The position numbers and the translations under genes are program-made. Below are positions 36,613 through 63,502 of a stretch of 64,000 nt of DNA, in pieces. The stretch is from the NCBI GenBank assembly GCA_965652295.1, contig CBFGTS010000008.1, positions 128,001-192,000 of the forward strand. The letters are read 5' to 3'. Position 1 is the stretch's first letter, and every line of letters begins with the position of its first letter. The DNA is from an uncultured Haloferula sp. Lineage in GTDB: Bacteria > Verrucomicrobiota > Verrucomicrobiia > Verrucomicrobiales > Akkermansiaceae. Under the pieces are notes generated by a model that saw nothing but the letters and a program-made list of their open reading frames with translations, was not told where the DNA came from and ran no database searches.

Positions 36613-37355
36613 GAAAGGACCGTGGATTCACTTTGATCGAGCTGATGGTGGCGATGGGCATCGGCATGGTGGTCCTGCTGCTGGCGGTGACGAGTCTCGA
36701 CTCGGCGAGCACCGGGTACGGGCGGAACACCGATGGCATCGCCGCCGAGCGCGAGGCCCGGGCGGTGCTCACGCAGATCGCCGGGGATCTTTCCTCCGCG
36801 GTGTGGCACGAGGACACGGTGCTCGAGAACAAGGGCGGGGATCGACCGACGGATCGCCTGGGTTTTCTGATGCTCCAACCGGCCGACGCCCAGACGGAAG
36901 GCAAGCGGATCGGCGATCTGTGCGCGACGGTGTATTACATCAAGGACATCGAGACCAGCGGGCGGTCGATGCGCTGCCTGATGAGGGGCTTCCGGAACAG
37001 CGAGGCGACTTTCGACGCGTTGCGGGACCACGACGTGCCCTCGCTCTTCGCCGAGGAGGAGGCGGACGAGCCGGTTTCGTTCGGGGTGCTGTCGTTCGAT
37101 GTCTCACCGTTGCGGCGAAACGCGAACGGAGGCTGGGAGGAGTGGCAGGAGGATATCGTTGAGGCGTCTCCGCGCGTGCCTGAACCTGACGCGGTGAGAA
37201 TCCGGCTGGTGGTGGCCCGGCGTGAACTCGCGGCGAAATTAGTCCGCGCCGAGGACTGGACGGCCAGCCCGCGGCTGCCCGCCCACGACAGGGTCGGGGA
37301 ATCGAACCAAGTGGAAACCTATGAGATCGTCCAAGCATTCGCCCACCCCTCCTAA
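36609..37355 (+). CDS. Minor (pseudo)pilin, GspJ/PilW-like
   Basis: G|FTLIELMVAM; GTGA overlap with the upstream gene. Confidence 0.85.
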   Translation: MRKDRGFTLIELMVAMGIGMVVLLLAVTSLDSASTGYGRNTDGIAAEREARAVLTQIAGDLSSAVWHEDTVLENKGGDRPTDRLGFLMLQPADAQTEGKRIGDLCATVYYIKDIETSGRSMRCLMRGFRNSEATFDALRDHDVPSLFAEEEADEPVSFGVLSFDVSPLRRNANGGWEEWQEDIVEASPRVPEPDAVRIRLVVARRELAAKLVRAEDWTASPRLPAHDRVGESNQVETYEIVQAFAHPS

Positions 37356-40287
37356 CCGTGGCTTCACGCTGGCTGCGGTGCTGGTGGTGATGGCGGCGAT
37401 CCTGCTCCTCGCCGTCGGGGCGCTGGCGCTGGTGGGCATCGAGCGCAAAACAGCGCGCTCGTACGTCGATGCCCGGCGGGCGGAGTGGATGGCGGAGTCG
37501 GGCATGGAAGACTTCCGGGTCCGCCTGAAGGAGCTGACGGCCAACGACCACTATCTGGTTTTCAGCAAGGCTGATGAGGAGGTGGACCCGCTCCGCGAAC
37601 CGGCGGATTATCTTTTTCTGGCCCGCGGCAGCGGTGGCGGGGACGGCCTGACCTTCGAGGTGACGCCGCTTTTCAGCGCCGAGTTTGGGACCGAGGAAGT
37701 GGGGGATCTTGAAGAAACCGGGGACGTGGGCGATTTCCGCGGGATGGAACCGACGGCCTTCGAAACCCTGCCGTGGGCCGATGAGGTGCAGGTCGATTGG
37801 ATCGAGGTGAAGGACGATGCGAACCGGGTGGTGGGGCGCTATGCTTATTGGGTCGAAGACTTGCAGGGGAAATTGGACGCCAGCAAGGCGGCCTCCGACC
37901 TCGCCAGGGTGGAGCATCCGCTGACGGCCCCGGGAGTGGCGCTCGATCCCGACGATGGAGCCCGCGAGGGAGTGGAGCTGGCGTTTTACGCGCTGGATCC
38001 GGAGAGCGAGGGCGACGAAGACGACAGCACCCTCGACGACCGATTGGAGGAAGGGCGGGAGCTGCTCGTCTCGCCGGGTGCCGTGTTGGCTGCGGCGGGG
38101 ATACGTCCGCCGCTGGAGCGGGATGAACAAGGGGCGCTTGAGGATGAGCTCGCGGGTGTTCTGGAACGTCATGTGGCGGTGGGCTTGCAGCCGTATGAGG
38201 AGCGGCCGGTGGTGCCGTTCACGGCGGGCATTTCCGACGAAGCCGCGGGACAACCGAAACGGAACCTCAACGAGATGCTGCTCGATCAAAGCACGGAGGC
38301 TGCCGTGAACTCGTTCGCCGACTGGGTGGATGAAGCGTTGCCGGAGTTCGCCGAACGCGGTGGGGGATTCCCCGACGACTACCTCCGTACCATGGCGGCC
38401 AATGCCCTCGACTACGCCGATGCCGACAACGAGCCGACGCTTCGGGAAGGCGTTTATCGAGGCCTGGATGGCTATCCTTTGGTAAGCGAACATCTCGTGC
38501 GTTACCGATGGGACAAGGTTTCCACCCGTGACGGCCGGAAGTATGTGGAGATCACGGTGAAGGTGGTCGCGGAGCTTTGGAACATGACCGATCAAGCGGT
38601 CGGCGGGGAAATGCAGCTCAGCTACGAGACGAACTACCAGTTTCCCCTCGGCCCGGTGCCGGATCTGAACCTCGGGGCACCCGAGTTCATCGAGGATCCC
38701 GACGTGTTCTCGCCGCAGTTGGAGAAATCCAACGGCTACTACTGGTTTCCCGCCCAGAACGTGGCGATGGAGCCGAATGAGTATCGCCTCATGGTTTTCC
38801 CGGAACTCAAGTATGTCATCGATGCAGGGCCTTCGAGCGTGTTCGTCCCCAGCCCGATCTACATGACCGGTGAGGATCTCTGGACCTCCGCCGGAACCAA
38901 CGTCGGCTACCGGATGCGCTGGAACGGGAAGATGGTGGACCAGTCCCGCGGTTATGTGGTCCACCCGGACATGTCGCTCAACTATCCCGCGGACACGCAA
39001 AAACAGCCGCGCCAGAATGTGTGGGGGACGATCCCGGGGCACAGCTATTCCACCGCCCCGTTCCAGCATGCCAACAACATGGGGGACCCGCGCATGGCTT
39101 TCTACATCGGCCTGCCTCAAGATCCGAATGATTATCCGGACAACTACAGCCCCAACCGTCGCACCGTCCGCTGGGGGAATATCTATCAGGGAGACGGATC
39201 GACGAAGGCCAAGGTATATGGCCGCGTGATGCCTTCGGAATGGCCGGACGGCGGACACAATACGGGCTTCGGATCGATACCGTCCGCCGTATCGGCAGGA
39301 CGGGGAGGCCAGGACGGAGACCAGCGGATTGATCCGGACCACGCCCAGTTCTTTCAAAACATCCCGGAAACCGAGCCTTACAAGGCGCCCATGCGGATCT
39401 CGAACCTGGGTCGCTTCGTTTCCGAATCCGAACTCGGTCGTGTCTACGATCCCGTCATGTGGCTGCCGACCTATGACAACACTTCGGAGACGAACCAGAT
39501 CCGTCGTGGTCTCATGCCCGGCTCCCGGGCATCCTGGCCGTTGGTGGTGGAGGCGGCACCGCCTTCCGGCGACTACGGTGGGGGTAATAGTTTGCGCATC
39601 GGGCGGCCGGAGCATCCGAAGTTCGATGTGCCGGGACTGCACGCCGCGCACCTGTTGGATCTCTTCCACGCAGGCATGGAGGGCGATGAAGATGATATCA
39701 CCGGGGATCGGGTGAGGATTGATGGCAAGGTGAACCTCAATACCGCCTCGCGCGAGGTGCTGAGGGCGCTGGCTGTGGGCTACCTGAAACAGGATCCCGT
39801 CCTGGCGGAACAGCTCAGCCGGTCGCATCAGCCGACCCATCTGATGGCACCTCCGACGCGGAGCGCGGAAGAGGGGGCGCCGCGGCTGGAGATCGCGGGC
39901 GATGTGCTGGCGGATGCCATCATTCTGCGCCGCCCGATCACCTGCGCGGCTGAGCTGGCTGCGGTGAAGACCGCGGAGGATGAACCGGTTTTCGGAAACC
40001 CGGAATTCCATCAACTGGGCGAGGATCTGGAGTGGAACGATTCGGCCGCCGAGGAGGTTTTCGAGCGGGTTTACAATGCCTCCACGCTGCGCTCGCGGAA
40101 CTTCCGGGTGTGGGTCGTAGGCCAGTCACTCGCGCCGAAAGAGGCGGACTCGACCTCCGCTCCGGTGGTGATGGCCGAGTCACGCAAGGTCTTCACCATC
40201 TTTGCCGACCCGGGCGACCGCACGGACTCCGGCGACATCGATTCCTCCAACTACCGCCCGCGTGTCATCCATGAAAACGGTTTCTAA
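37321..40287 (+). CDS. Large PilX/GspK-like pseudopilin (Verru_Chthon cassette A-like)
   Basis: G|FTLAAVLVV (no Glu5); GRYAYWVEDLQGKLD; GKVNLNTAS; TLRSRNFRVWVVGQ. Confidence 0.82.
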   Translation: MRSSKHSPTPPNRGFTLAAVLVVMAAILLLAVGALALVGIERKTARSYVDARRAEWMAESGMEDFRVRLKELTANDHYLVFSKADEEVDPLREPADYLFLARGSGGGDGLTFEVTPLFSAEFGTEEVGDLEETGDVGDFRGMEPTAFETLPWADEVQVDWIEVKDDANRVVGRYAYWVEDLQGKLDASKAASDLARVEHPLTAPGVALDPDDGAREGVELAFYALDPESEGDEDDSTLDDRLEEGRELLVSPGAVLAAAGIRPPLERDEQGALEDELAGVLERHVAVGLQPYEERPVVPFTAGISDEAAGQPKRNLNEMLLDQSTEAAVNSFADWVDEALPEFAERGGGFPDDYLRTMAANALDYADADNEPTLREGVYRGLDGYPLVSEHLVRYRWDKVSTRDGRKYVEITVKVVAELWNMTDQAVGGEMQLSYETNYQFPLGPVPDLNLGAPEFIEDPDVFSPQLEKSNGYYWFPAQNVAMEPNEYRLMVFPELKYVIDAGPSSVFVPSPIYMTGEDLWTSAGTNVGYRMRWNGKMVDQSRGYVVHPDMSLNYPADTQKQPRQNVWGTIPGHSYSTAPFQHANNMGDPRMAFYIGLPQDPNDYPDNYSPNRRTVRWGNIYQGDGSTKAKVYGRVMPSEWPDGGHNTGFGSIPSAVSAGRGGQDGDQRIDPDHAQFFQNIPETEPYKAPMRISNLGRFVSESELGRVYDPVMWLPTYDNTSETNQIRRGLMPGSRASWPLVVEAAPPSGDYGGGNSLRIGRPEHPKFDVPGLHAAHLLDLFHAGMEGDEDDITGDRVRIDGKVNLNTASREVLRALAVGYLKQDPVLAEQLSRSHQPTHLMAPPTRSAEEGAPRLEIAGDVLADAIILRRPITCAAELAAVKTAEDEPVFGNPEFHQLGEDLEWNDSAAEEVFERVYNASTLRSRNFRVWVVGQSLAPKEADSTSAPVVMAESRKVFTIFADPGDRTDSGDIDSSNYRPRVIHENGF

Positions 40288-40954
40288 ACTGCTCGCCGCC
40301 CTCGTGGTTGCGGGTCCTCTTTTTGCTCAGGACCCTCCACCGAACATCGGCTTCATCCGCATGGTCAATGCCGTGGCCGCCGGCGAGGGAAACACCGAGG
40401 TGCTGGTGGACGGAGAGACACTCTACCCGAAAGGCTACAAGTTGGGTCAGAAGACGGGCGGCATCGGCCTGCCGGCGGGCAGCCGCCGGATCACGATCCG
40501 CAAGCAAGGCGTCGAGGAGGGCTCGACCTCGCTGGGCGTGGCTGCGGGGGCGACCACGACCCTGATCGCGTTTGCGGAAAGGGTGGAGCCGAAGGATCCC
40601 GAGGAGGAGGTCACGTACCGGGCTCGGATCTTACGGCTGAAGCAATCCGACCCCGAGCGGGGCTATCGGCTCACCGTGATCAGTGTGTGCACGGAGGAGG
40701 AAGTGGCCTTCAACGTCGCCACCGCGGCCCGGCGGGTGTTCGAGAAGACGGCGGTGAAGCGTTTTGATACCCGGACGATGGACCTGGGGAACGGACGCGG
40801 AGACGTGCAGATCAAGTTGCGCGGACGGCAGGAAACCCTTTGCGGCATGTCGCTCGCCGCGCCGGGCAACTATGTGGCGGTGTTCTACAACGACGCCGAA
40901 GGCAACATCAAAGCTCTCACGTTCTACGATCCGAAGTTCGTGATCGCCGGGTGA
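40271..40954 (+). CDS. Secreted hypothetical protein of the pilin cassette
   Basis: Signal peptide MKTVSKLLAALVVAGPLFAQD; GFIRMVNAV beta-rich start; overlaps the upstream gene. Confidence 0.7.
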   Translation: MKTVSKLLAALVVAGPLFAQDPPPNIGFIRMVNAVAAGEGNTEVLVDGETLYPKGYKLGQKTGGIGLPAGSRRITIRKQGVEEGSTSLGVAAGATTTLIAFAERVEPKDPEEEVTYRARILRLKQSDPERGYRLTVISVCTEEEVAFNVATAARRVFEKTAVKRFDTRTMDLGNGRGDVQIKLRGRQETLCGMSLAAPGNYVAVFYNDAEGNIKALTFYDPKFVIAG

Positions 40955-48421: not shown

Positions 48422-48567
48422 GGTGACTTGGTGGACGATTCACCCGGCTTTCGGATGAGCCGCAAGGCGAATAGATAGTGCCAATGCTGGGTGCGTTGCA
48501 CCCAGCCTCAATTCCCGTCAAAGGAACACCCCCATCATCAATGTGGCAAAAATTCTTGCCATGGTCC

Positions 48568-48791
48568 GATGATTTATCATCTCTTGTCGCGTCCGCTCCG
48601 GCGGATGAGGACTTCAAAACCTCGCACTACGCGGTCGGCATCGGCCGTGAACGATGTCGCCAAACCGACAAAAAGGCCGGGGAGGCGGCGGCGTATGTCC
48701 AGGCCGCTGTCCCACGGGATGTCGGCTAAAGGCCGTTGCGGCCGACGTAGTGCGGCTTTTGAACTCCCCGTCCACCGGAAGGTAAATCATC
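48568..48791. repeat. Long imperfect inverted repeat (candidate structured RNA or REPIN-like element)
   Basis: 48597-48646 pairs with 48731-48779 (about 41 Watson-Crick pairs by manual alignment). Inner stems lie at 48665-48725, and an outer stem pairs 48568-48578 with 48781-48791. Confidence 0.75.
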
Positions 48792-48804
48792 CCCCTTCCT
48801 GATC

Positions 48805-49626
48805 ATGTTATCCCGTTCCCGTATCCCCCTTCTGTTCCCGGGGCTTCTCTTTTGCGCTGCTGCGGGTGGTGCCTTGGCCGAGTCGCCCCGGAACCCCGTC
48901 CGCCTTGAGGTCACGCCGGGCATTCCGGACCCGGCTGAGATTCTTTTCACTCCTCCTCCTCCGCCCCAGCCGGTGCCGGCGATGAGGGTCGATTCCGCGG
49001 TGGTCCGGCAAGTGGCGGGTCACCGGATCACGGTCGTGCGCGGAGAGCCATCGGCTCTGCCCGATATCCCCGTGCCTCCAGTGGCAGCCCGCTCTGCGGA
49101 GCCCGTCGACTTCTCCGGGCCCGCGGTGAAATCATTTTTCATCGGCATGTCGGTGACGGTGTACGATCACCGCATCAGCCAGGTGAAATGGTCCGATCCG
49201 GAGACCGGCGAACGCCATGAAGCATGGTGCGGCTGGGATTGGGAACTGCTCTCGCCCATCCAGCAGGTCGAGGGAGAAGGAGTTTCCTATGGTCTGTTTT
49301 TCAGTCCGTTGCATGAGCAACGCTCGGCCGCGTTCGATCTACCGGAGGGAGAGTTCCGGTTGACGCAGGGAAACCCGGAGTCCCCATGCGGGGAGGCTCT
49401 GATCGCCGCGATGCAGTCTTTCCACGCGGAGCATCGCACCCGGCTGCATGAGGTGCTGGCCGCGCGGCAAAGGTGCCGCGAGGAGGCGGTGGCGTGGAAG
49501 AAAGCGAATCCGCCCACGGCGCAGAATCACACCGTCTGGCTCCGGCCCCACCGCGGGAGCCGTTATTTGCGGGAAGCTGCCGGCACCATCACGCAGGCTG
49601 CGGGCGGAAAGGAGGAGTCGCGATGA
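48805..49626 (+). CDS. Secreted hypothetical protein (putative accessory gene of the downstream locus)
   Basis: Signal peptide, Pro-rich stretch, C-terminal WKKANPP; ATGA overlap with the next gene. Confidence 0.7.
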   Translation: MLSRSRIPLLFPGLLFCAAAGGALAESPRNPVRLEVTPGIPDPAEILFTPPPPPQPVPAMRVDSAVVRQVAGHRITVVRGEPSALPDIPVPPVAARSAEPVDFSGPAVKSFFIGMSVTVYDHRISQVKWSDPETGERHEAWCGWDWELLSPIQQVEGEGVSYGLFFSPLHEQRSAAFDLPEGEFRLTQGNPESPCGEALIAAMQSFHAEHRTRLHEVLAARQRCREEAVAWKKANPPTAQNHTVWLRPHRGSRYLREAAGTITQAAGGKEESR

Positions 49627-52289
49627 ATGCCGCGTCTTTGCTTCGTGTGGTCTTCCTTCTTCTTTTGTTCCTGAACAACGGCTTCGTCCGTGCCCAGGAT
49701 CAGAATTCGGAGGTCATCGTCGTCCCGCCCGGCGACAAGTTTCTGCGTTGGCACGGCCATGCCGGTCGGACGTATTTCATCCAAACCTCCGACCCCGCCG
49801 CCCACCTCGAATCGTGGTTCTGGGCCCCCGTGATCGAGCTCGGGAACGACGAGGAGATCAGCTACGAGGTCGGGAGTAGTGCCGGGAAAGGATTCTTCCG
49901 GCTCCACTACACCGACGACCCTTCTCCGGTCGGCGTTTCCCTTGAGGACTGGGACATCGATGCCGACGGGCTTACCAACTGGCAGGAGATCGCGACTTAT
50001 CACACCAACCCCTTGCTCCCGGATACCGATGGCGACGGGCTCTCCGACGGATGGGAAGTGCAGAACGCCCTCGATCCGCTCGATCCCTCCGGCAACAACG
50101 GCGGCGGTGGGGATCCCGACGGCGATGGCACCAACAACCGGGACGAACAGGACCATGACACCGATCCGGGAAACGCGGCGGACTTTCCACCGCAAGTGTG
50201 GTCGGTGACCGCCATGGTCAGCGGGAGCTCTTCGGCGCAGCTCCAGGCCGAAAAGCACATCCGCGAGCGGAACTGGAACGAAGCAACGTACGGTGAACCC
50301 GAGGATAGCGAGGGTCATCTCACGCCGGAGGATCTGAAATCCCGCGCCGAAGGCCTGCCTTTGCCCGGAACGCTGGCCGAAGCCATGGCTGAGCCCGACC
50401 ACATCCAGATGGGGGAGTATGAAGCCTACGCCCACGGCCATTTTTACGCTTCGACCAGTTATTATGAGAACAAGACCGGAAATCACACCGTGACCCGCGT
50501 CTGGGTCCGGGTGCCTCCGAAAAACGAGCAGCAGACCTTCCACTTCGCCAAGCTCACGTCCCGCAACGACCCGGACCCGAGCACCCTGCTTGAGGGGGAA
50601 GTCGTCACCTTTTCCGTTCCGGCCAATCAGACGGACTCCTTCTACATCGACATGAAGTGCGACAGCATCTCGGTGCTGGGGAAGGACGTTCATACCCAGG
50701 TCAGGCTTCGGGCGATCGAGCCGGCCCCCGCGGTGCTGGCGGTGAACTCGGACTTCGACGAAGGCCGGATTGATCCGGATACCGGCTACGCCATTCCCGA
50801 TTGCGACGATGTTCCCGGCGTGAACCGCGACACGGGGGCGGGCAATGATGAGATGGTGATCGGCACCCAGCGGGCGCACCTCGACGGACTGTATGCGAAC
50901 GGGGAGCACATTACGGATGACCTGCACAAGGGGTGGTTCGGAGTGAATCCCCACGACCTGGAGGATGAGTTTTGGGATGGCACGACCGTCACCATCCGGA
51001 AGCTCGACAAGATCGACCCCGCAACGGGACAGACGGAGAGCGGTCAGGTCCGTTTCTACTCCAAGTGGGGGGATACGAGGTTCGGGTCCTATTATGGAAT
51101 CACCCCTTACAACCTTGGAGGGTTCCAACCTAAAGACTTGGTCGTCAGCGGGGTGAACAAAAGGTCGGGCGAAGGAGTTTACGGCTCCACATCGACGATT
51201 CCCGAAGAAGCCACCTTCTGGATGGAAGGCGTCCGCCCCGGCAAGATCACGCTGCAGTGGCGTTTGACCAAAGAATCGGTGGATCTTATCTATGAACAGA
51301 CCTTCCTGGTGGAGACCCGACAGTCCGTGGAGGACTGGCGGGAGGAGGTCCGTTATCAGATCCGGTTGCAGACCAAGGCGAAGACAGGCAGCGAGGTGGA
51401 TATTGCGCTTTATGATCCGGCCAACGGCTTCCGCAACACGCTTTTTCCGAGCCCGCCGGAGAACGACAACGTACTACGGGTGCGGGCCATCTATTACTAT
51501 TACCAACAGCTCTTCCAGCAGATGCCGGAGAAGTTCATGTGGGCGGGGATGGCCAAGACCGCGGCCGCACCGATCTACGCCGCCATGAGCGACCTCACGA
51601 CCTGGTGGCAACTCCAATGGGCTCTGCCTGGAGGGGATGACGGTGCTGGTACCAAAGAACTCATCGAGGGACTGCTTTTGAGTGGCCAGAAGGCGATCTG
51701 CGCCGACAAGGGATGGGCGCATCGGGCCTACATGGCGAGTGGAATAGGGGCGTTGAATTGGGTTAAGGACAATGGCAATGCGAACGCGACGGATTTTGAC
51801 GCATGGGATGACTTGAATACAGGAATTTTATATGAGAGTCAGCCCACGATCAATCAGGCAAACCAGGACCTTCTCGAACGAGAACAGTTCGAAGTGGTCC
51901 AACAGTATTATTTCGACCACGCTACCAATGTTCGGATGAGACAATCCCCTGCGTGGATAGATTGGGGTGCCGCCGTCCATGTGGAGGAAGATGCCGACGG
52001 CTTGGTCAACGTCGGTGTGTGGCTTTCGGCGAATTCCAACAAGAACCCCATGCCGGGTGGTCCGGGGTTTCATGCGGTGGTTCCGGACGGTCGGATTGAT
52101 TTCGTCAACGACCGATGGGCCTGGACGAACAATGCGGTCAACGGAATGCTACAGATCTGGACGGGGGATGCAAGTTCTTCGGTCGCTCCCCATTTCGATG
52201 CCCCCACGCGCATGGCGGAGAACAACAAAACGATGTATTCGGCTGCCTCTGACTACTCGAATGACACAGGAGAATTACCCGTTGAATGA
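49623..52289 (+). CDS. Large secreted protein with TSP3-like Ca-binding repeats and a DUF2515-like C-terminal domain (candidate polymorphic toxin)
   Basis: Signal peptide; DIDADG/DTDGDG/DPDGDG repeats; C-terminal FMWAGMAK, GQKAICAD..WAHRAY, LLEREQ..VVQ, DRWAW. Confidence 0.7.
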   Translation: MNAASLLRVVFLLLLFLNNGFVRAQDQNSEVIVVPPGDKFLRWHGHAGRTYFIQTSDPAAHLESWFWAPVIELGNDEEISYEVGSSAGKGFFRLHYTDDPSPVGVSLEDWDIDADGLTNWQEIATYHTNPLLPDTDGDGLSDGWEVQNALDPLDPSGNNGGGGDPDGDGTNNRDEQDHDTDPGNAADFPPQVWSVTAMVSGSSSAQLQAEKHIRERNWNEATYGEPEDSEGHLTPEDLKSRAEGLPLPGTLAEAMAEPDHIQMGEYEAYAHGHFYASTSYYENKTGNHTVTRVWVRVPPKNEQQTFHFAKLTSRNDPDPSTLLEGEVVTFSVPANQTDSFYIDMKCDSISVLGKDVHTQVRLRAIEPAPAVLAVNSDFDEGRIDPDTGYAIPDCDDVPGVNRDTGAGNDEMVIGTQRAHLDGLYANGEHITDDLHKGWFGVNPHDLEDEFWDGTTVTIRKLDKIDPATGQTESGQVRFYSKWGDTRFGSYYGITPYNLGGFQPKDLVVSGVNKRSGEGVYGSTSTIPEEATFWMEGVRPGKITLQWRLTKESVDLIYEQTFLVETRQSVEDWREEVRYQIRLQTKAKTGSEVDIALYDPANGFRNTLFPSPPENDNVLRVRAIYYYYQQLFQQMPEKFMWAGMAKTAAAPIYAAMSDLTTWWQLQWALPGGDDGAGTKELIEGLLLSGQKAICADKGWAHRAYMASGIGALNWVKDNGNANATDFDAWDDLNTGILYESQPTINQANQDLLEREQFEVVQQYYFDHATNVRMRQSPAWIDWGAAVHVEEDADGLVNVGVWLSANSNKNPMPGGPGFHAVVPDGRIDFVNDRWAWTNNAVNGMLQIWTGDASSSVAPHFDAPTRMAENNKTMYSAASDYSNDTGELPVE

Positions 52290-53266
52290 AGTTGAAATGT
52301 GTCATGTGTTTCATCCTGCTTGTCTTTTCCGCATACGCGGAGGTGGCGAATCCGGTGCCCAGGCTGAATGACGAATACGACCCGGCGAAGTGGCCGAAGG
52401 CGACACTGAAGCTGTCGCAGGCAGCGACGTTGAAGAATGTCTTTGATTCGGGTCTTCGGCCGTACCGATTCCCAGGGCTTGAAAACACAACGCTGGAAGT
52501 AAAGCATCTGAATCTCATGGTCAGTCTGGGTTCGGGGAACAAGCTTCCCTTGATCCAGGCTGAGGTCATGCGAATCAAACCTTTCAGGGATGGAGAGATC
52601 GCCACCATCGAGGGATTTACGCCCAAACTCACTCTTGATCAGGCGCGTGCGGAAATGCTTAAGTGGCTTCCCTATGCCGAAAATGATAGGACGAAAAACG
52701 ATATCGAGATCTATTTAGATGCGGTAAGAGCGGATTATTTGGATTTTGATGATCCTTATCGCGGTATTTCCCATGGCTGCTCGGTGTATTGGAAGGAGCC
52801 GGGATGGAAAACAAAGGGCGGTGGACCTCAAGTGGTGGCTTGGTTTAGAAAAACGACCAGCGTGACTCATCCCTTACGTATCCATTTCAAAGCGACTTGG
52901 TCATCGAACCGTCCTCAGAAAAATCGTGGCACCTACCGTCCCGATCCGATTGAGCCCCCGCCCGGCTACGAAGATGTGGACATGACCGCGCCTGAGAACA
53001 TCGGGCCGGACAGCATGGTGGGACTTTTGCGCTCGAAGGGCGTGGACGTCGGGGATGGCAACGGCGGAATTCCCCAGGAGGAGTATTTCCGCTCGCTCAA
53101 GGGCCAGCAAGAAGCGGAACCGGAGGAACCGGAAACGGTCGTGCAAACGGATGAAGAGGAGCGTGGAAATCTTCGCATCTTCTGGTTGCTGGGAGCCGTC
53201 CTCGCGCTGGCCTTTCTGATTTGGCAGATCATGCAGAAACACGACCGCCGTGGTTCGGCCGGATGA
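52286..53266 (+). CDS. Hypothetical exported, C-terminally membrane-anchored protein (candidate immunity/partner)
   Basis: Signal peptide, C-terminal TM IFWLLGAVLALAFLIW with a basic tail, ATGA overlap, visibly lower GC. Confidence 0.7.
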   Translation: MKLKCVMCFILLVFSAYAEVANPVPRLNDEYDPAKWPKATLKLSQAATLKNVFDSGLRPYRFPGLENTTLEVKHLNLMVSLGSGNKLPLIQAEVMRIKPFRDGEIATIEGFTPKLTLDQARAEMLKWLPYAENDRTKNDIEIYLDAVRADYLDFDDPYRGISHGCSVYWKEPGWKTKGGGPQVVAWFRKTTSVTHPLRIHFKATWSSNRPQKNRGTYRPDPIEPPPGYEDVDMTAPENIGPDSMVGLLRSKGVDVGDGNGGIPQEEYFRSLKGQQEAEPEEPETVVQTDEEERGNLRIFWLLGAVLALAFLIWQIMQKHDRRGSAG

Positions 53267-53377
53267 AGGGGAAAGCATGTCGAATGGGTCCTCGCGGCGT
53301 TGAAGGAGCGATACGAGATCGTCGTCTATCCAGCGCCAGAAGCAGAACCGCACGAATGACAGGCGAACTAACCAGAA

Positions 53378-53510
53378 GCCGAACCGAGCCGCGCCGTGGT
53401 AACCGCTACCAACCTTTCTTTTCTCATGATCTACCGTAACTACACCACCAACCCTGAACTCAGCGTGCGCTGCCGTTGGTAGTGCTGAACGCGTTTTACA
53501 TTCGTTCGAG
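53378..53510 (+). mobile_element. attC-like integron cassette recombination site
   Basis: GCCGAAC...GTTCGAG core ends spanning 133 bp. Internal inverted pair CGCTACCAAC (53404-53413) / GTTGGTAGTG (53475-53484). ATG follows 3 nt downstream. Confidence 0.62.
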
Positions 53511-53513
53511 AAT

Positions 53514-54026
53514 ATGAACACGATCAAGCATACGCGTATTGTTAAGGTTCCCGCCGATTTTCTGTTCGATTATTCCCAACGGAATTCTTGCCGAATGGAC
53601 TGGGGTCCATTCGTGGCTGAGGTGCATCTGCATGATGACACCGACCTTCCGGCTGCGGGCACCGAAGTAACCGTTAAGACTTGGAATCGGATGGTTATGA
53701 CCTGTCGCTACATCCAATTTCGGAGACCAGATTGCATTGCCATCAAGATGCTGAGAGGTCCTTGGGCACTAGCGTCCTTTGGAGGTGGTTGGAGATTCGA
53801 GCCAGTCGAACCAAAGGAGACAAGAGCCTCCTTTTCCTACAGCTTCACCCTCAAAATAGGCCTCCGATGGCTCACTCCATTTGCCAAAGCGTATTTCTCA
53901 TGGGACATGCGACGGCGATTAAAGGCGCTCCAGAGCGGCGCTGATCGCGCCTATCGAGATTACGAGGACAAGGGAGTCTTGCCGTGGTCCATCCCAACCT
54001 CACAGATCATCCCTCCTAATGCCTGA
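53514..54026 (+). CDS. SRPBCC (polyketide cyclase/START-like) family protein, gene-cassette-like
   Basis: LFDYSQ...RMDWGPF, IKMLRGPW...FGGGWRF, RRLKAL; lower GC. Confidence 0.8.
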   Translation: MNTIKHTRIVKVPADFLFDYSQRNSCRMDWGPFVAEVHLHDDTDLPAAGTEVTVKTWNRMVMTCRYIQFRRPDCIAIKMLRGPWALASFGGGWRFEPVEPKETRASFSYSFTLKIGLRWLTPFAKAYFSWDMRRRLKALQSGADRAYRDYEDKGVLPWSIPTSQIIPPNA

Positions 54027-54039
54027 ATTAATTACCTCA

Positions 54040-54246
54040 ACCTTCCACGAAAACCTGCGCCACCGCTGCAAGTCCGGCAGCAAGCGCGGCTCGGAGCGGG
54101 AGAAGCGAGGACGACTCAAGAACCAGGTGATGATCGACGAGCGTTCGCGCATCGGAGACCGGGAGATGGACACGGTCATCGGTCGGCCCGGAGGACCGGT
54201 GCTCGTCACGATGGTCGAACGCGTCAGCCGCTACACACTGCGATGA
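54040..54246 (+). pseudogene. IS30-family transposase internal fragment
   Basis: RGRL..VMIDER-SRIGDREMDTVIG...LVTMVERVSRYT matches the IS30 first-catalytic-Asp region. No termini are present; boundaries approximate. Confidence 0.8.
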
Positions 54247-54515
54247 AGGGGAATGCGGCAATGGTGCCATCGGAGGGGCGCTCGGCAGGCTTGGCAGCCC
54301 ACAGGACTTTGCGATTTGGCTGGGGACTGTCACGGACCTGATCTGACCTCCGCGACCCAAAGGAGTGATGATCCAGCTTGAGGAATGCCGAGCGGTGGTG
54401 GAGTCCGGATTCGAGCGGTGCGAGGGTTCGCGAGTGGAGCAGCGGGCAGCGACGAAGAGCGTTGCCCGGCCTCCGCGCGTTTTTCGAGGCAGACAGTTCC
54501 CGGGCGGATTCCGCA

Positions 54516-60010: not shown

Positions 60011-60039
60011 AAACTAGGAGCAGACCCCGGCCATGGCAA
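60011..60039 (-). promoter_or_regulatory. Putative sigma70-type promoter of the small basic protein gene
   Basis: Minus strand TTGCCA-N17-TAGTTT. Confidence 0.55.
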
Positions 60040-60197
60040 GGCGAAAGACGCGGGAGATTTTTTGCCGAAGGTCCGGGGCGGGGGAATCGATCGGGTTTCA
60101 GATCAGGGGGAATAGGGGCTCGGAGGGAATGGCGTTGACAGGAGGAGAGGGGGGATGGATGAGGATGCGACATGCGTGGAAGAGTTTTTCTCAAGTC

Positions 60198-61763
60198 ATG
60201 AATGCGCGGAACCTTATCCTGGTGGGTGCCGCCTGGACGGTGGCGCTCGGGGCCGGTTTCGGAGTCCGGAGAGCCATGCAAAATCCCGGTCCCGGGGCAT
60301 CGGACCGTGATCCGGACATGGGCGAGGAACGAGCGGTGCCGGAAGCGAAGCATGGCAGCCCGTCTTCCCCGGGGGGAGTGGACGTGGAAAGCCAGGTCCG
60401 CGAGTTGATGGCACGGGCGGACGGGACGCGCTCGCGGGATACGCTGGAGACGATTCTGGAGATCGATCCCGTGGCGGAGTATGGCAGGCTGGCGTTGTGG
60501 ATGGTGGATGCCAGCGGGGAGGAAATCGGAAGCTACTGGGACGCCTACCGGCAGCGCGAAAACCGCAGCAACGAGGTCAACGACCTGATTTTCATCAACT
60601 GGACCCGGGCCGATCCCGAGGCGGCGGTGACGGCTTCATCCGGGACGGATGACGAGCACTATGCCTGGTGGGCATGGGCCTGCCATGATCCCGGCAAAGC
60701 CTTGGCGGAGGTGGTGGTGCGGGATCCGGAGCGGTTGAACAACGTCACCTGGGGCATTGGGGAATTCCACGCGGAGTGGGCGATGAAGCACTTCGATGAG
60801 ATTCCCGAGGAAGCGAGGGACAATATCTTCCGCGGGATGGTGAAATGGGACGACACCGCGGACCCGGGAGCGATCCTCGATTTCCTGAGTGAGCATGGCC
60901 GCGGGACCGACGGGCGGATGTTCCGGGCGTTGGTGCGCAAGGACCCGTGGGCGGCCTACGACCGGGTCATCGGAGGAGGCGGACGGGTTTCGGAGCCATG
61001 GACGGGCGACAACTCCATGGATGTTCTCATCTCCACGATGGCCAGTGCCCACCCGGATCTGCTGGAAAGGATGTCGCAACTGACGCCGCCCGGTGAGTTG
61101 AAGCGGAAAATGGAAGCGTCCGCTTTCGACAGCCTGCTCGACAAGGACCCCGAGGCGGCCGTCGAGCTGGCATTGGCCCAGAAGGCGCCGCTTGCCGCTG
61201 CGAATCAGCTCAGCAAGGTGGGAAAGAGCCTGCTTGAGAGCGATCCCGATCGGGCGTTCGAGATGGCGGAGCGCTTGTTCGATCTGCCGCAGGATGCCGT
61301 CCTTGGCAGGACCCGGGTGGAGTATTCATCGGGCACATCGAGCCACGGTGGAAACGGGGGAAACGACGGATTCCTCTCCCTGCTGGTTGCGGAGGACGCC
61401 CGGCGGACCATGGACCTGGCCATGAATGCCGGTGGGGCGGAAAGTGGTCATCACGAGACGGTGGAACTCGTCGCCGACAGCTGGCTGCAACAGGATCTCT
61501 ATGGGTTTTCGGAGTGGGCGGCGGAGCTTGAGACTTCTCCGCAGCGGACCGTGGCCATCAACTCGCTCGTCAACCACCTTTCCAACGAGAGTCTCCACCT
61601 CGAAGCCGTGCAGTGGTGTGCGACCGAGGAGACCTTGCGAAGTTCCTTGCCGTGGCGGGTGCAGAGGTGGGCCCAAGCCGATCCCGACGGAGCCCGTGCC
61701 TGGGTCGAACAGGCGGATCTGAACCCGGCGGAGCGGATCTCCATCGAACAACAACTCAAATGA
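60198..61763 (+). CDS. Hypothetical membrane-anchored helical-repeat protein
   Basis: N-terminal hydrophobic anchor; recurring W..xDPxAA motifs. Confidence 0.75.
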   Translation: MNARNLILVGAAWTVALGAGFGVRRAMQNPGPGASDRDPDMGEERAVPEAKHGSPSSPGGVDVESQVRELMARADGTRSRDTLETILEIDPVAEYGRLALWMVDASGEEIGSYWDAYRQRENRSNEVNDLIFINWTRADPEAAVTASSGTDDEHYAWWAWACHDPGKALAEVVVRDPERLNNVTWGIGEFHAEWAMKHFDEIPEEARDNIFRGMVKWDDTADPGAILDFLSEHGRGTDGRMFRALVRKDPWAAYDRVIGGGGRVSEPWTGDNSMDVLISTMASAHPDLLERMSQLTPPGELKRKMEASAFDSLLDKDPEAAVELALAQKAPLAAANQLSKVGKSLLESDPDRAFEMAERLFDLPQDAVLGRTRVEYSSGTSSHGGNGGNDGFLSLLVAEDARRTMDLAMNAGGAESGHHETVELVADSWLQQDLYGFSEWAAELETSPQRTVAINSLVNHLSNESLHLEAVQWCATEETLRSSLPWRVQRWAQADPDGARAWVEQADLNPAERISIEQQLK

Positions 61764-63502
61764 TGAAGGAACTTTCACCCACTCTCCGTTCCGCGGTCTT
61801 CGCCGGGGCGGGGGCGATGCTGTTGCTCGGCTGGACTCTGGGCGGAAAAAGGGAGGAGGCCGCCCATGAGGAGGTGCTCTCCCGCGCGGATGCCAGGCTG
61901 ACGGATCGCGCGGCGCGGCCCGACGGCAAGTATCGTACTCCGGACCACGCGGTGAGCCGTGTTGCGGCGATCCGTGCGCTTTCCTCCCGCGGCGAGCAGA
62001 TGCGGGCGACGATCGCCTTGGTGAACTCCCTGACGCTTGAGGAGCTGGCGGAGTGGATCGAAGGCCGTTGGTTCGATCACGGAGGGGACTTCAACCTCAC
62101 GCTCTTCAACAAGATCGCGGAGAAGCGTTGGCAGACCGAGGATCCGGACGGCTACCTCGCTTACCAGATCCGGCAGGGCGGGGGGTCGGCGTATGAGGCC
62201 ATGGATCGCCTTGCACGGGAGGACCCGGAGCGATTGTTTGCGTATTTCAGGGAGCATCCGGATGCGTCGATGGAGCTAAGCTTGCTCCAACGGGTCGCCA
62301 ACGACCACCCGGACCTCGCTTTGGCTCGCGCCCGCGAATTGATCGAATCCGGCGTGGGGCTGGGGGACTCGGTGCGGCACCAATTGGGCTACACGCTCCG
62401 AACCATCGCTGCCAAGGATCCTGCCTTGGTGGAGGGTTTGTTGGAATCCGTGCCGACGTTCTTCGCGCGCGAAATCGAACGGGGGATCGTGTCCAAGGGA
62501 CTGCAGGATTCGTTCTCAGAAACGATGCGGGATCTCTGGGGCCGGGCGGATGGCTGGAGCCTCTTCAGCGGGGCGGATTTGGAAGGAAAGGGCGGGAAAC
62601 TGCTGGCGGAGATCCACGATCTGCCTGCCGCCTGGAAAAACATGATCGCCCAGCAGCCTCATTCGGTCATCGACGGCGAGAACGCCGCCCAGTGGCTGGG
62701 CGTGGATTTCAAGGGGGCTGGTTTCACCGACAAACAGGCCAAGGATATCGTTTCCCGCTCTCTTATGTATCTTGCGAGCGAAGACCCTCAGGAGACGCTC
62801 CGCCAGATGGACAAGTGGGAGATCTCGGAGAATGACCGGAACAATCTGATTCAAAGGATCTTCGGAGCGAACTCTGTCGAGCAAACGAGGGCGCTACTGG
62901 ACAGCCTCCCCTCCGACCAAGAGAGGGCGAAAGCGGCGGGCATGCTGGAGGCGAGGATGCGACATGAAACGGTGGACCAAGTCACCGCCCCCACGACTCC
63001 GAAGGAGTGGATGGAAACGCTGAGCGGAATGGATGAGGCATCGGTTTATCCTCTGGTCAGTCAGCTGAGGAATTGGAACTCGGAGAAGATCGCTGAAATC
63101 ACGGCGGGGTTCCATGACCTGCCGGCGGAGACCAAGGACAAGCTGGCGGCCTCGCTGCTCGACTATGGCAACTCCGTGGATCCCGCGCTGCGGGGTGAGG
63201 CGGTGAGGCATCAACTGACATCGGCGTCGGACGAGAGTGGAAATCCCTCAGACGACCCCTTCCGCGGTAGGAATCCGGAGGAGCGTGCGTCCGCCCTCGC
63301 CGTGGAGTGGATGAAGTCGGACCCTGGAGCGGCTAGCCAATGGGTCAACTCACTGCCTGCCGGCGATGCGAAGCTCTGGGCCCAGAAGAACCTCGCGCGG
63401 AACTGGGCCCTCTACGATCCGGACTCGGCGAAGCTGTGGGTCAGCTCGCTGCCGGGCCATGCCAAGACGGAAGTGACGCAGTTCCTGAAAGACAAAGAAT
63501 AG
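61760..63502 (+). CDS. Hypothetical membrane-anchored helical-repeat protein
   Basis: ATGA overlap; N-terminal anchor; WMKSDPGAASQWV and WALYDPDSAKLWV repeats. Confidence 0.75.
   Translation: MMKELSPTLRSAVFAGAGAMLLLGWTLGGKREEAAHEEVLSRADARLTDRAARPDGKYRTPDHAVSRVAAIRALSSRGEQMRATIALVNSLTLEELAEWIEGRWFDHGGDFNLTLFNKIAEKRWQTEDPDGYLAYQIRQGGGSAYEAMDRLAREDPERLFAYFREHPDASMELSLLQRVANDHPDLALARARELIESGVGLGDSVRHQLGYTLRTIAAKDPALVEGLLESVPTFFAREIERGIVSKGLQDSFSETMRDLWGRADGWSLFSGADLEGKGGKLLAEIHDLPAAWKNMIAQQPHSVIDGENAAQWLGVDFKGAGFTDKQAKDIVSRSLMYLASEDPQETLRQMDKWEISENDRNNLIQRIFGANSVEQTRALLDSLPSDQERAKAAGMLEARMRHETVDQVTAPTTPKEWMETLSGMDEASVYPLVSQLRNWNSEKIAEITAGFHDLPAETKDKLAASLLDYGNSVDPALRGEAVRHQLTSASDESGNPSDDPFRGRNPEERASALAVEWMKSDPGAASQWVNSLPAGDAKLWAQKNLARNWALYDPDSAKLWVSSLPGHAKTEVTQFLKDKE

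Follow-up and report, generated by a model that had tools for sequence, protein, structure and literature searches.

Polymorphic toxin systems, as described in PMC3482391, combine a constant N-terminal region with polymorphic C-termini, place the toxin gene before an immunity gene that is replaced together with the toxin tip, and are accompanied by orphan cassettes and strings of immunity genes. In the Maf systems of Neisseria (mafA-mafB-mafI), a constant exported upstream gene precedes a signal-peptide toxin with a lineage-specific N-domain and a variable C-terminus, followed by immunity genes and orphan cassettes (PMC3482391 and PMC9970974); MafA is required for MafB secretion (PMC7738311). 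The TANFOR toxins of Bacteroidetes carry a Sec signal, a phylum-specific N-domain and variable tips that include peptidoglycan hydrolases, and are paired with SUKH immunity proteins (PMC7073777). Here, we focus on a three-gene locus of an uncultured Haloferula species (Verrucomicrobiota; Akkermansiaceae), at positions 48805 to 53266 of a stretch of 64,000 nucleotides, hereafter the window (GCA_965652295.1, contig CBFGTS010000008.1, positions 128,001 to 192,000). Comparative evidence gives good support to the view that this cassette very probably belongs to a real polymorphic toxin/immunity family of Verrucomicrobiales and is likely an antibacterial weapon, for which we infer toxicity and immunity from its genes. 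The components of the cassette are as follows.

Gene 1, 48805..49626, forward strand: 273 amino acids (aa), no known family; a conserved exported partner, predicted to bind the N-domain.
Gene 2, 49623..52289, forward strand: 888 aa, modular, putative toxin.
Gene 2 signal-peptide-like N-terminus, 49623..49694, forward strand: residues 1-24, read from the sequence.
Gene 2 N-domain, 49695..49922, forward strand: approximately residues 28-98, an N-terminal copy of a beta domain of about 65 aa.
Gene 2 TSP3-like DxDxDG repeats, 49923..50192, forward strand: PF18884 (TSP3_bac), E 1.3e-8, over the Pfam cut-off.
Gene 2 stalk module, 50193..50717, forward strand: residues 191-365, common to the paralogue on C7, with the swap point near residue 365.
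Gene 2 pre-toxin module, 50718..51317, forward strand: residues 366-565, which travels with the C-terminal domain.
Gene 2 C-terminal domain (tip), 51318..52289, forward strand: residues 566-888, DUF2515-like, all-alpha, putative toxin.
Gene 3, 52286..53266, forward strand: 326 aa, putative cognate immunity protein with a signal peptide and a C-terminal membrane anchor.

A sequence-only reading had described three co-oriented genes joined by ATGA overlaps (49623-49626 and 52286-52289), and a check of the open reading frames (ORFs) bears this out. Signal peptides on all three products, as that reading also held, are visible by eye as a hydrophobic N-terminal stretch followed by an A-X-A-like cleavage site (ALA/E, VRA/Q and AYA/E), and the exported, C-terminally anchored character ascribed to gene 3 agrees with a C-terminal hydrophobic segment followed by basic residues. 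Within gene 2, Pfam confirms the calcium-binding repeats and its C-terminal domain is indeed distinct, but the single linker proposed between them resolves into two modules; comparison of homologues associates residues 191-365 with the N-terminus and residues 366-565 with the C-terminal domain. Genes 1 and 3 have no Pfam match. The proposed lack of markers of Rhs, contact-dependent inhibition and type VI secretion also agrees with the searches made: no RHS/YD or haemagglutinin repeats were found in gene 2, and a search of the genome, which is 98% complete, returned no VipB. The gene layout is that of mafA-mafB-mafI, with no homology detected: Maf families gave no Pfam match for gene 1 or its 110 relatives, and DUF1020/MafB-N (the existence of whose Pfam model is taken from papers) gave none for gene 2 in Pfam or NCBIfam at E<=1. 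The overall architecture likewise resembles that of the TANFOR toxins, for which no match was found in NCBIfam or Pfam; the dedicated upstream partner gene is a difference from them.

Evidence for a polymorphic family comes from the exchange of tips. The genome holds a second copy of genes 1 and 2 on C7, whose gene 2 is 59% identical to that of the window up to residue 365 or so (58% for the stalk module) and unrelated beyond it (about 60% identity before residue 360 or so, about 20% after), and whose gene 3 is unrelated. Two other members, L007 and L079, share 92% identity across 398 residues and end in unrelated tips. Among 55 complete pairs of gene 2 and gene 3, of which 40 are non-redundant, the downstream gene lies -8 to +31 nucleotides from the toxin gene. 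The 40 pairs form 20 tip clusters and 28 gene-3 clusters, and the two partitions agree with an adjusted Rand index of 0.61 against 0.24 for the best of 10,000 shuffles, an index that kinship inflates; none of the eight multi-member gene-3 clusters spans two tip types. Both the swapping of C-termini and the co-variation of downstream genes that the sequence-only reading anticipated are thus found among homologues, and the pattern that it feared, conservation over full length with an invariant downstream gene, is not seen, as tips and gene 3 vary together. Together with the coupling of gene 1 set out below, these comparisons favour the hallmark layout of polymorphic toxins, and the constant N-terminal region, polymorphic C-termini, toxin-immunity order and joint replacement of tip and downstream gene outlined in PMC3482391 all recur here.

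Composition points the same way. In 35 of 40 members the first 600 bp of gene 2 are richer in GC than the last 600 bp, and gene 3 is lower in GC than the N-terminal 600 bp of gene 2 in 38 of 40 pairs. In the window the fall noted by the earlier reading is real, but it is gradual and begins near 50.9 kb, not near 51.7 kb: GC is 0.618 over gene 2 residues 1-190, 0.563 in the C-terminal domain, 0.541 in gene 3 and 0.524 in the fourth gene, with flanking genes at 0.62-0.66. The 3′ part of gene 3 recovers to 0.59-0.61, and low values extend through the fourth gene.

Recognisable activities are found on a minority of tips. A Pfam scan of 38 tips returned four Amidase_3 domains (E<1e-20), one DUF2380-like and one DUF6973-like domain; the L009 tip is SitA6/DUF2380-like (E 1.6e-5), below the cut-off of the SitA6 polymorphic-toxin model. 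Other tips carry what we take, by eye, to be HExxH, Cys-His-Asp, lysozyme-like and JAB-like motifs. The 45 downstream genes include two SMI1/KNR4 genes over the cut-off (L009 and L121) and one orphan DUF2380-like fragment. Amidase_3 and SMI1/KNR4, with the SitA6-like match below cut-off, are the domains recognised in this family from the account of polymorphic toxins in PMC3482391, which also describes orphan cassettes and immunity strings; here, orphan tip cassettes or strings of immunity genes occur in relatives and at other loci (L009, L199, C5, C14 and C1), with none in the window. A signal is called in 34 of 40 gene-3 products by a crude hydrophobicity rule. In four long members (1294-1675 aa) gene 3 has no signal peptide, and in the amidase members it is exported; most immunity proteins of the family would be exported, unlike those of Maf.

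Several separate observations concern the ends of these cassettes. Downstream of a 1294-aa member at L009:7227-15230 lie three related genes for cytoplasmic products, an orphan tip fragment and an SMI1/KNR4 gene. The gene-3 products of L062, L067, L079, L091, L011 and L055 are unrelated proteins that end in a common short tail resembling EQNKAQHPTDG, which suggests read-through into a shared DNA element at cassette ends. A universal junction motif was considered and rejected: only 10 of 40 members, against a rate of 0.02 in shuffles, and 15 of 31 tip carriers show an LLPVE-like motif, and the window has RAIEP at this place.

Coupling between gene 1 and the N-domain gene is tight. A profile of gene 1 matched 127 frames, 120 of which had a downstream ORF, and this ORF encoded the N-domain in 106 of the 120 loci (duplicate contigs and a few spurious profile matches included), 96 of them through an ATGA overlap; three more were recognised as N-domain carriers by a wider profile. 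In the reverse direction, with an N-domain profile built from gene-1-linked loci as the query, gene 1 lay immediately upstream in 27 of the 30 best loci. Gene 1 is therefore kept upstream among homologues, as proposed; its description as a dedicated partner stands as regards the strength of the coupling but is not absolute, since it is absent beside three of the 30 N-domain genes and beside the four class-II toxins described below. The C7 copy of gene 1 is 42% identical to that of the window. A single query detects gene 1 in 23 of 301 genomes of the order, and a profile detects it in 8 of 401 genomes of the phylum; it was also found in 604 cluster representatives. The named relatives of the locus are Haloferula and Akkermansiaceae records.

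The predicted structure of gene 1 is a small mixed alpha/beta fold (predicted local distance difference test score, pLDDT, 88) with no barrel. A fold search with this model gave no Foldseek match and a best VIA match of Z 4.0 (root-mean-square deviation, rmsd, 3.8 over 65 aligned residues), none above background, a negative that does not by itself mark the fold as new. Modelled as a complex with residues 25-150 of gene 2, it scores 0.69 against 0.00 for the best of three controls; of 157 solved complexes 116 attain the score mark, as do 2 of 215 mismatched pairs, and the mark applies roughly here, where our own alignments were used. The runs share at least 90% of contacts, with a partner pLDDT of at least 79. 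In the model, gene 2 residues 79-85 (ISYEVGS) lie antiparallel to gene 1 residues 244-251 (VWLRPHRG), and the invariant L246 of gene 1 contacts L41, I53 and A68 of gene 2. The model supports binding of gene 1 to the N-domain by pairing with its C-terminal VWLRPHRG strand. As to the suggestion that gene 1 is a chaperone or delivery factor, a partnership with the N-domain is thereby favoured, and chaperone, adaptor and anchor fit the interface equally.

Some loci depart from the simple gene order. In L022, L023, L029, L032, L033 and L115, the gene-1-linked N-domain ORFs are only 176-252 aa long and are followed by further ORFs; they would be split toxins or the products of frameshifts. At L057:661-7735 and at L060, the whole cassette of gene 1, toxin and gene 3 is repeated in tandem; both tandem toxins of L057 have Amidase_3 ends. 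A 1223-aa protein, P0131, in which gene 1 is fused to gene 2, was set aside as evidence of fusion because it retains the internal signal-like stretch and is likely a frameshift.

The N-domain is not confined to toxins, which is another difference from Maf. The toxin N-domain profile weakly matched the last 65 or so residues of many proteins of this genome, and an iterated profile built from ten C-termini only gave 66 matches genome-wide at E<=0.05, of which 56 lie no more than 12 residues from the stop codon, 6 near the N-terminus and 4 elsewhere, with none in reversed sequences. The toxin-free seed profile already matched the window N-domain (E 4.8e-5 genome-wide) and the N-domains of relatives (down to E 3.5e-11). 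By these profile matches, the N-domain is homologous to the domain that ends 56 other proteins of the genome (copies include loci L149-L164). The domain spans about 65 aa with the consensus W..G..Y.I..S.DL..W...FYR, and a search of 201 phylum genomes, using an alignment that includes the window copy, recovers it in 87; N-domain matches at E<=1e-6 occur in 80 of 251 genomes of the order, the weakest of them likely C-terminal copies. The alignment of C-terminal copies matches no consistent Pfam or NCBIfam family, and half of a CBM32/discoidin domain (E 9e-4) was the only structural relative found by sequence, a weak one.

A short beta domain that closes dozens of signal-peptide proteins at their very C-terminus within one phylum is a feature of type IX secretion (T9SS), where it serves as a sorting domain. 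The resemblance to the domain described here is one of analogy, with no family match; PorV, the sole T9SS component searched for, was not found in the 98%-complete genome, whose export genes include four secretins and one ShlB-like gene on another contig. Judged by its position, the domain is a possible sorting signal. What appears new, from profiles and structural models, is that a toxin family has as its constant domain a relocated copy of an unnamed C-terminal domain known from across the phylum, and that a partner is predicted to donate a strand to it.

The six N-terminal placements in the genome all belong to toxin-like genes, two of the gene-1 type and four of a second type, class II, at the following loci.

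L145, C5:277000-286000: class-II locus.
L146, C1:458000-466500: class-II locus.
L147, C14:58000-65500: class-II locus.
L148, C3:238000-244500: class-II locus.

Class-II proteins are about 960-1010 aa long, carry an insert of about 145 aa inside the domain and an HExxH tip, and have no gene 1. Their downstream genes are coupled, low in GC and equipped with a signal and an anchor, with tandem copies and an orphan fragment among them. Of 301 genomes searched in the order, 11 encode this type, and its HExxH tip also occurs on gene-1-type members (P0019 and L005). Homology of the insert to gene 1, suspected by eye, was rejected, as hhalign gave probabilities of 0.2% (4 sequences) and 0.04-0.4% (17 sequences).

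The tip of the window resembles DUF2515 (PF10720) over residues 740-838 at 17.1 bits, below the cut-off of 24.3; four homologues of the tip (P0312, P0314, P0316 and P0318), 24-43% identical to it, pass that cut-off. Residues 566-888 have 49 other homologues, of which 46 are of verrucomicrobial type, all 46 keeping residues 366-565, and three are WXG100 proteins (P0318-20). The tip sits on at least three other verrucomicrobial N-termini and occurs in 18 of 401 genomes of the order. A homologue of gene 3 follows window-type tips in 15 of 16 loci with downstream DNA, as judged with a profile built from these same genes, 11 of which gene 3 matched directly while the rest are linked by pairwise BLAST. 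Similarity matrices of tip and gene 3 correlate (rho 0.38; 8 of 5000 permutations; 14 pairs). The full triplet of gene 1, N-domain with window-type tip, and gene 3 recurs at L185 (where gene 1 is frameshifted), L191, L195 and L198; L199 holds only a 74-aa tip fragment and gene 3, in mid-contig. A greater divergence of the tip and a gap at 52178-52511 in contigs of another study may reflect different organisms and were not used, as were runs X7-X16, whose shares are small, left aside; no RNA data set was listed as containing the locus. Taken as a whole, the comparisons of homologous loci demonstrate a fixed coupling of genes 1 and 2, swapping of tips, and joint travel of tip and downstream gene.

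The tip is modelled with confidence as all-alpha (pLDDT 94), and twelve residues are invariant in all 28 carriers compared (W572, Y627, W640, G642, A644, A702, G707, W728, E754, Q755, R831 and P886). A fold search gave no Foldseek match at E<=0.001 and a best VIA match of Z 4.8 (rmsd 5.1 over 134 aligned residues), none above background, which again speaks neither for a new fold nor against a known one, and the ESM Atlas gave no usable match for the tip or P0318. An Arthrobacter plasmid protein (L232:4401-6538, NZ_CP012477.1) joins a weak WXG100-like start to a DUF2515-like end. Verrucomicrobial homologues of gene 3 consistently have a signal-like N-terminus and a C-terminal anchor, which would place them on the outer face of the inner membrane, and we suggest that the tip is soluble and works as an enzyme beyond the inner membrane. 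Since the tip is shared with Actinobacteria, its target may be peptidoglycan or a precursor, a guess to which we give slightly less than an even chance. A literature search that left subscription journals largely uncovered gave only spurious matches and no paper naming DUF2515/PF10720; its role as a toxin tip is proposed here from sequence comparison.

Rather less probable is a cytoplasmic or membrane target for the window tip (a pore, lipid or nucleotide), which we regard as somewhat unlikely. The all-alpha fold would suit it, other tips of the family have cytoplasmic partners, and the gene after the Arthrobacter carrier has no visible signal peptide. It fits poorly with a tip that has no transmembrane-like stretch and a highest 19-residue hydropathy of 0.84, and with the signal and anchor of gene-3 homologues, which point to the outer face of the inner membrane.

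A mechanism can be proposed in which all three products would cross the inner membrane by Sec. In the periplasm, the invariant VWLRPHRG strand of gene 1 (244-251) is predicted to pair with ISYEVGS of the N-domain (79-85), completing a small beta sheet, and the N-domain would act as a tag for crossing or anchoring at the outer membrane, gene 1 probably serving export or surface display. Its shift to the N-terminus would leave the C-terminus free for replacement. The calcium-binding repeats and stalk may keep the tip away from the cell, the tip enzyme would act in the envelope of a neighbour, and gene 3, anchored to the membrane in the periplasm of the producer, would block it. A wider proposal, which we put forward tentatively and think somewhat more likely to be wrong than right, is that there is an undescribed verrucomicrobial outer-membrane sorting route through a domain of about 65 aa that stands C-terminally on dozens of exported proteins in each genome, hijacked by toxins that moved the signal to the N-terminus. 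As the signal is then no longer terminal, a partner or an insert would complete the sheet: gene 1 would donate a strand, or the class-II insert of about 145 aa would act in cis. Both periplasmic and cytoplasmic toxins would be delivered in this way, and DUF2515 would be a new envelope-toxin fold shared with type VII substrates.

Delivery might instead depend on gene 1 itself as an outer-membrane exporter or surface anchor like MafA, with the N-domain as a mere docking site. The layout recalls mafA-mafB-mafI (PMC3482391 and PMC7738311), and the near one-to-one coupling and the modelled interface would be expected of such an arrangement. Yet MafA is a lipoprotein, whereas a lipobox-like motif occurs in only 3 of 99 gene 1 relatives, of which 80 are hydrophobic at the N-terminus and none contains a transmembrane-like stretch further in; the small mixed alpha/beta model without a barrel, the 56 C-terminal copies of the domain against just two copies of gene 1 in the genome, and class-II toxins that manage without gene 1 all speak against it, and we consider it unlikely.

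A number of findings count against a toxin family as a whole. Kinship inflates the Mantel figures as it does the Rand index; among the 20 tip clusters, one (L065) is an artefact of a frameshift, and three with HExxH tips seem to be related. About half of the 30 loci of the reverse test overlap the training set of its profile. Gene 1 is missing not only beside three of those N-domain genes and the class-II toxins, as noted, but also at L196, and L197 carries a DUF2515-like domain and has no gene-3 homologue. The 170-aa gene of no known function after the Arthrobacter carrier has no signal peptide from its annotated start, a misfit with a universally periplasmic target. In addition, 32 of the 38 scanned tips have no Pfam family naming a toxin or hydrolase, 43 of the 45 downstream genes match no immunity family, and many tips (amidase, HExxH and transglutaminase-like) could be self-serving surface enzymes. 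These last points lend weight to a diversifying display of surface enzymes or adhesins for feeding or attachment, in which gene 3 would be a tip-specific chaperone or an inhibitor protecting the cell's own envelope; amidase and HExxH tips have housekeeping uses, and the N-domain, which ends many exported proteins, is a general exported-protein feature. Such a display is nevertheless improbable in view of the SMI1/KNR4 genes, the tandem arrays of gene 3 and orphan tip fragments, the SitA6-like tip with cytoplasmic downstream proteins, the sharing of the window tip with WXG100 substrates and the lower GC at the 3′ end in 35 of 40 members. A toxin/immunity family remains the reading that we favour.

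Two further elements adjoin the cassette.

Leader, 48591..48780, forward strand: conserved structured element upstream of gene 1.
Gene 4, 53514..54026, forward strand: low-GC gene of the polyketide-cyclase/START family (PF10604, E 4e-13).

The leader has two more full copies in the genome, on C1 and C5, 83-84% identical; all three directly precede N-domain toxin-like operons, those on C1 and C5 standing before class-II genes. BLAST finds it ahead of toxin operons at 12 other distinct loci, which are a minority of the loci examined. It has a folding z of -4.68, and 15 of 51 consensus pairs show two-sided changes among 15 copies, with kinship ignored. It weakly matches the Rfam family sRNA-Xcc1 (28.8 bits against a cut-off of 53); in cassettes of Xanthomonas, sRNA-Xcc1 is located upstream of the toxin symE (10.1101/2025.06.18.660453).

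Gene 4 is likely a passenger outside the toxin system; a contig from another study fuses 53266 to 54268 and omits it. One contig, also from another study, fuses 48422 to 54502, with 30 letters on the short side and 18 between, and this single short-sided joint indicates that some related organism has a cassette-free form. A suspected attC-like hairpin in the interval from gene 3 to gene 4 is unsupported (folding z +1.09). Frames at about 54040-54250 resemble an IS30-like transposase remnant by eye; the two pieces scanned gave no Pfam match. Elsewhere in the window, 60033-63502 encodes two tandem proteins of 576 and 629 aa that have a hydrophobic segment at the N-terminus and match no Pfam family above cut-off. 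At 37321-40954, a protein of 988 aa bearing a weak pilin-like N-methylation motif precedes an exported DUF4397-like protein, and the two likely form a pilus-like cassette of verrucomicrobial type.

Soil, roots and fresh water all harbour Verrucomicrobia in abundance. Literature searches, with subscription journals largely outside their coverage and most results judged by title and opening of the abstract, found neither a description of this system nor any interbacterial weapon specific to Verrucomicrobia. The family would supply a candidate for such a weapon, with about 20 tip types, mostly of no known family, and matching candidate immunity proteins, and DUF2515 gains a testable role. The analysis also brings to light a C-terminal domain, unnamed and spread across the phylum, whose behaviour resembles that of a sorting signal, with the residues of its predicted partner interface named; it offers a lead to a possible verrucomicrobial sorting signal, and the route by which large proteins cross the verrucomicrobial outer membrane becomes directly testable.

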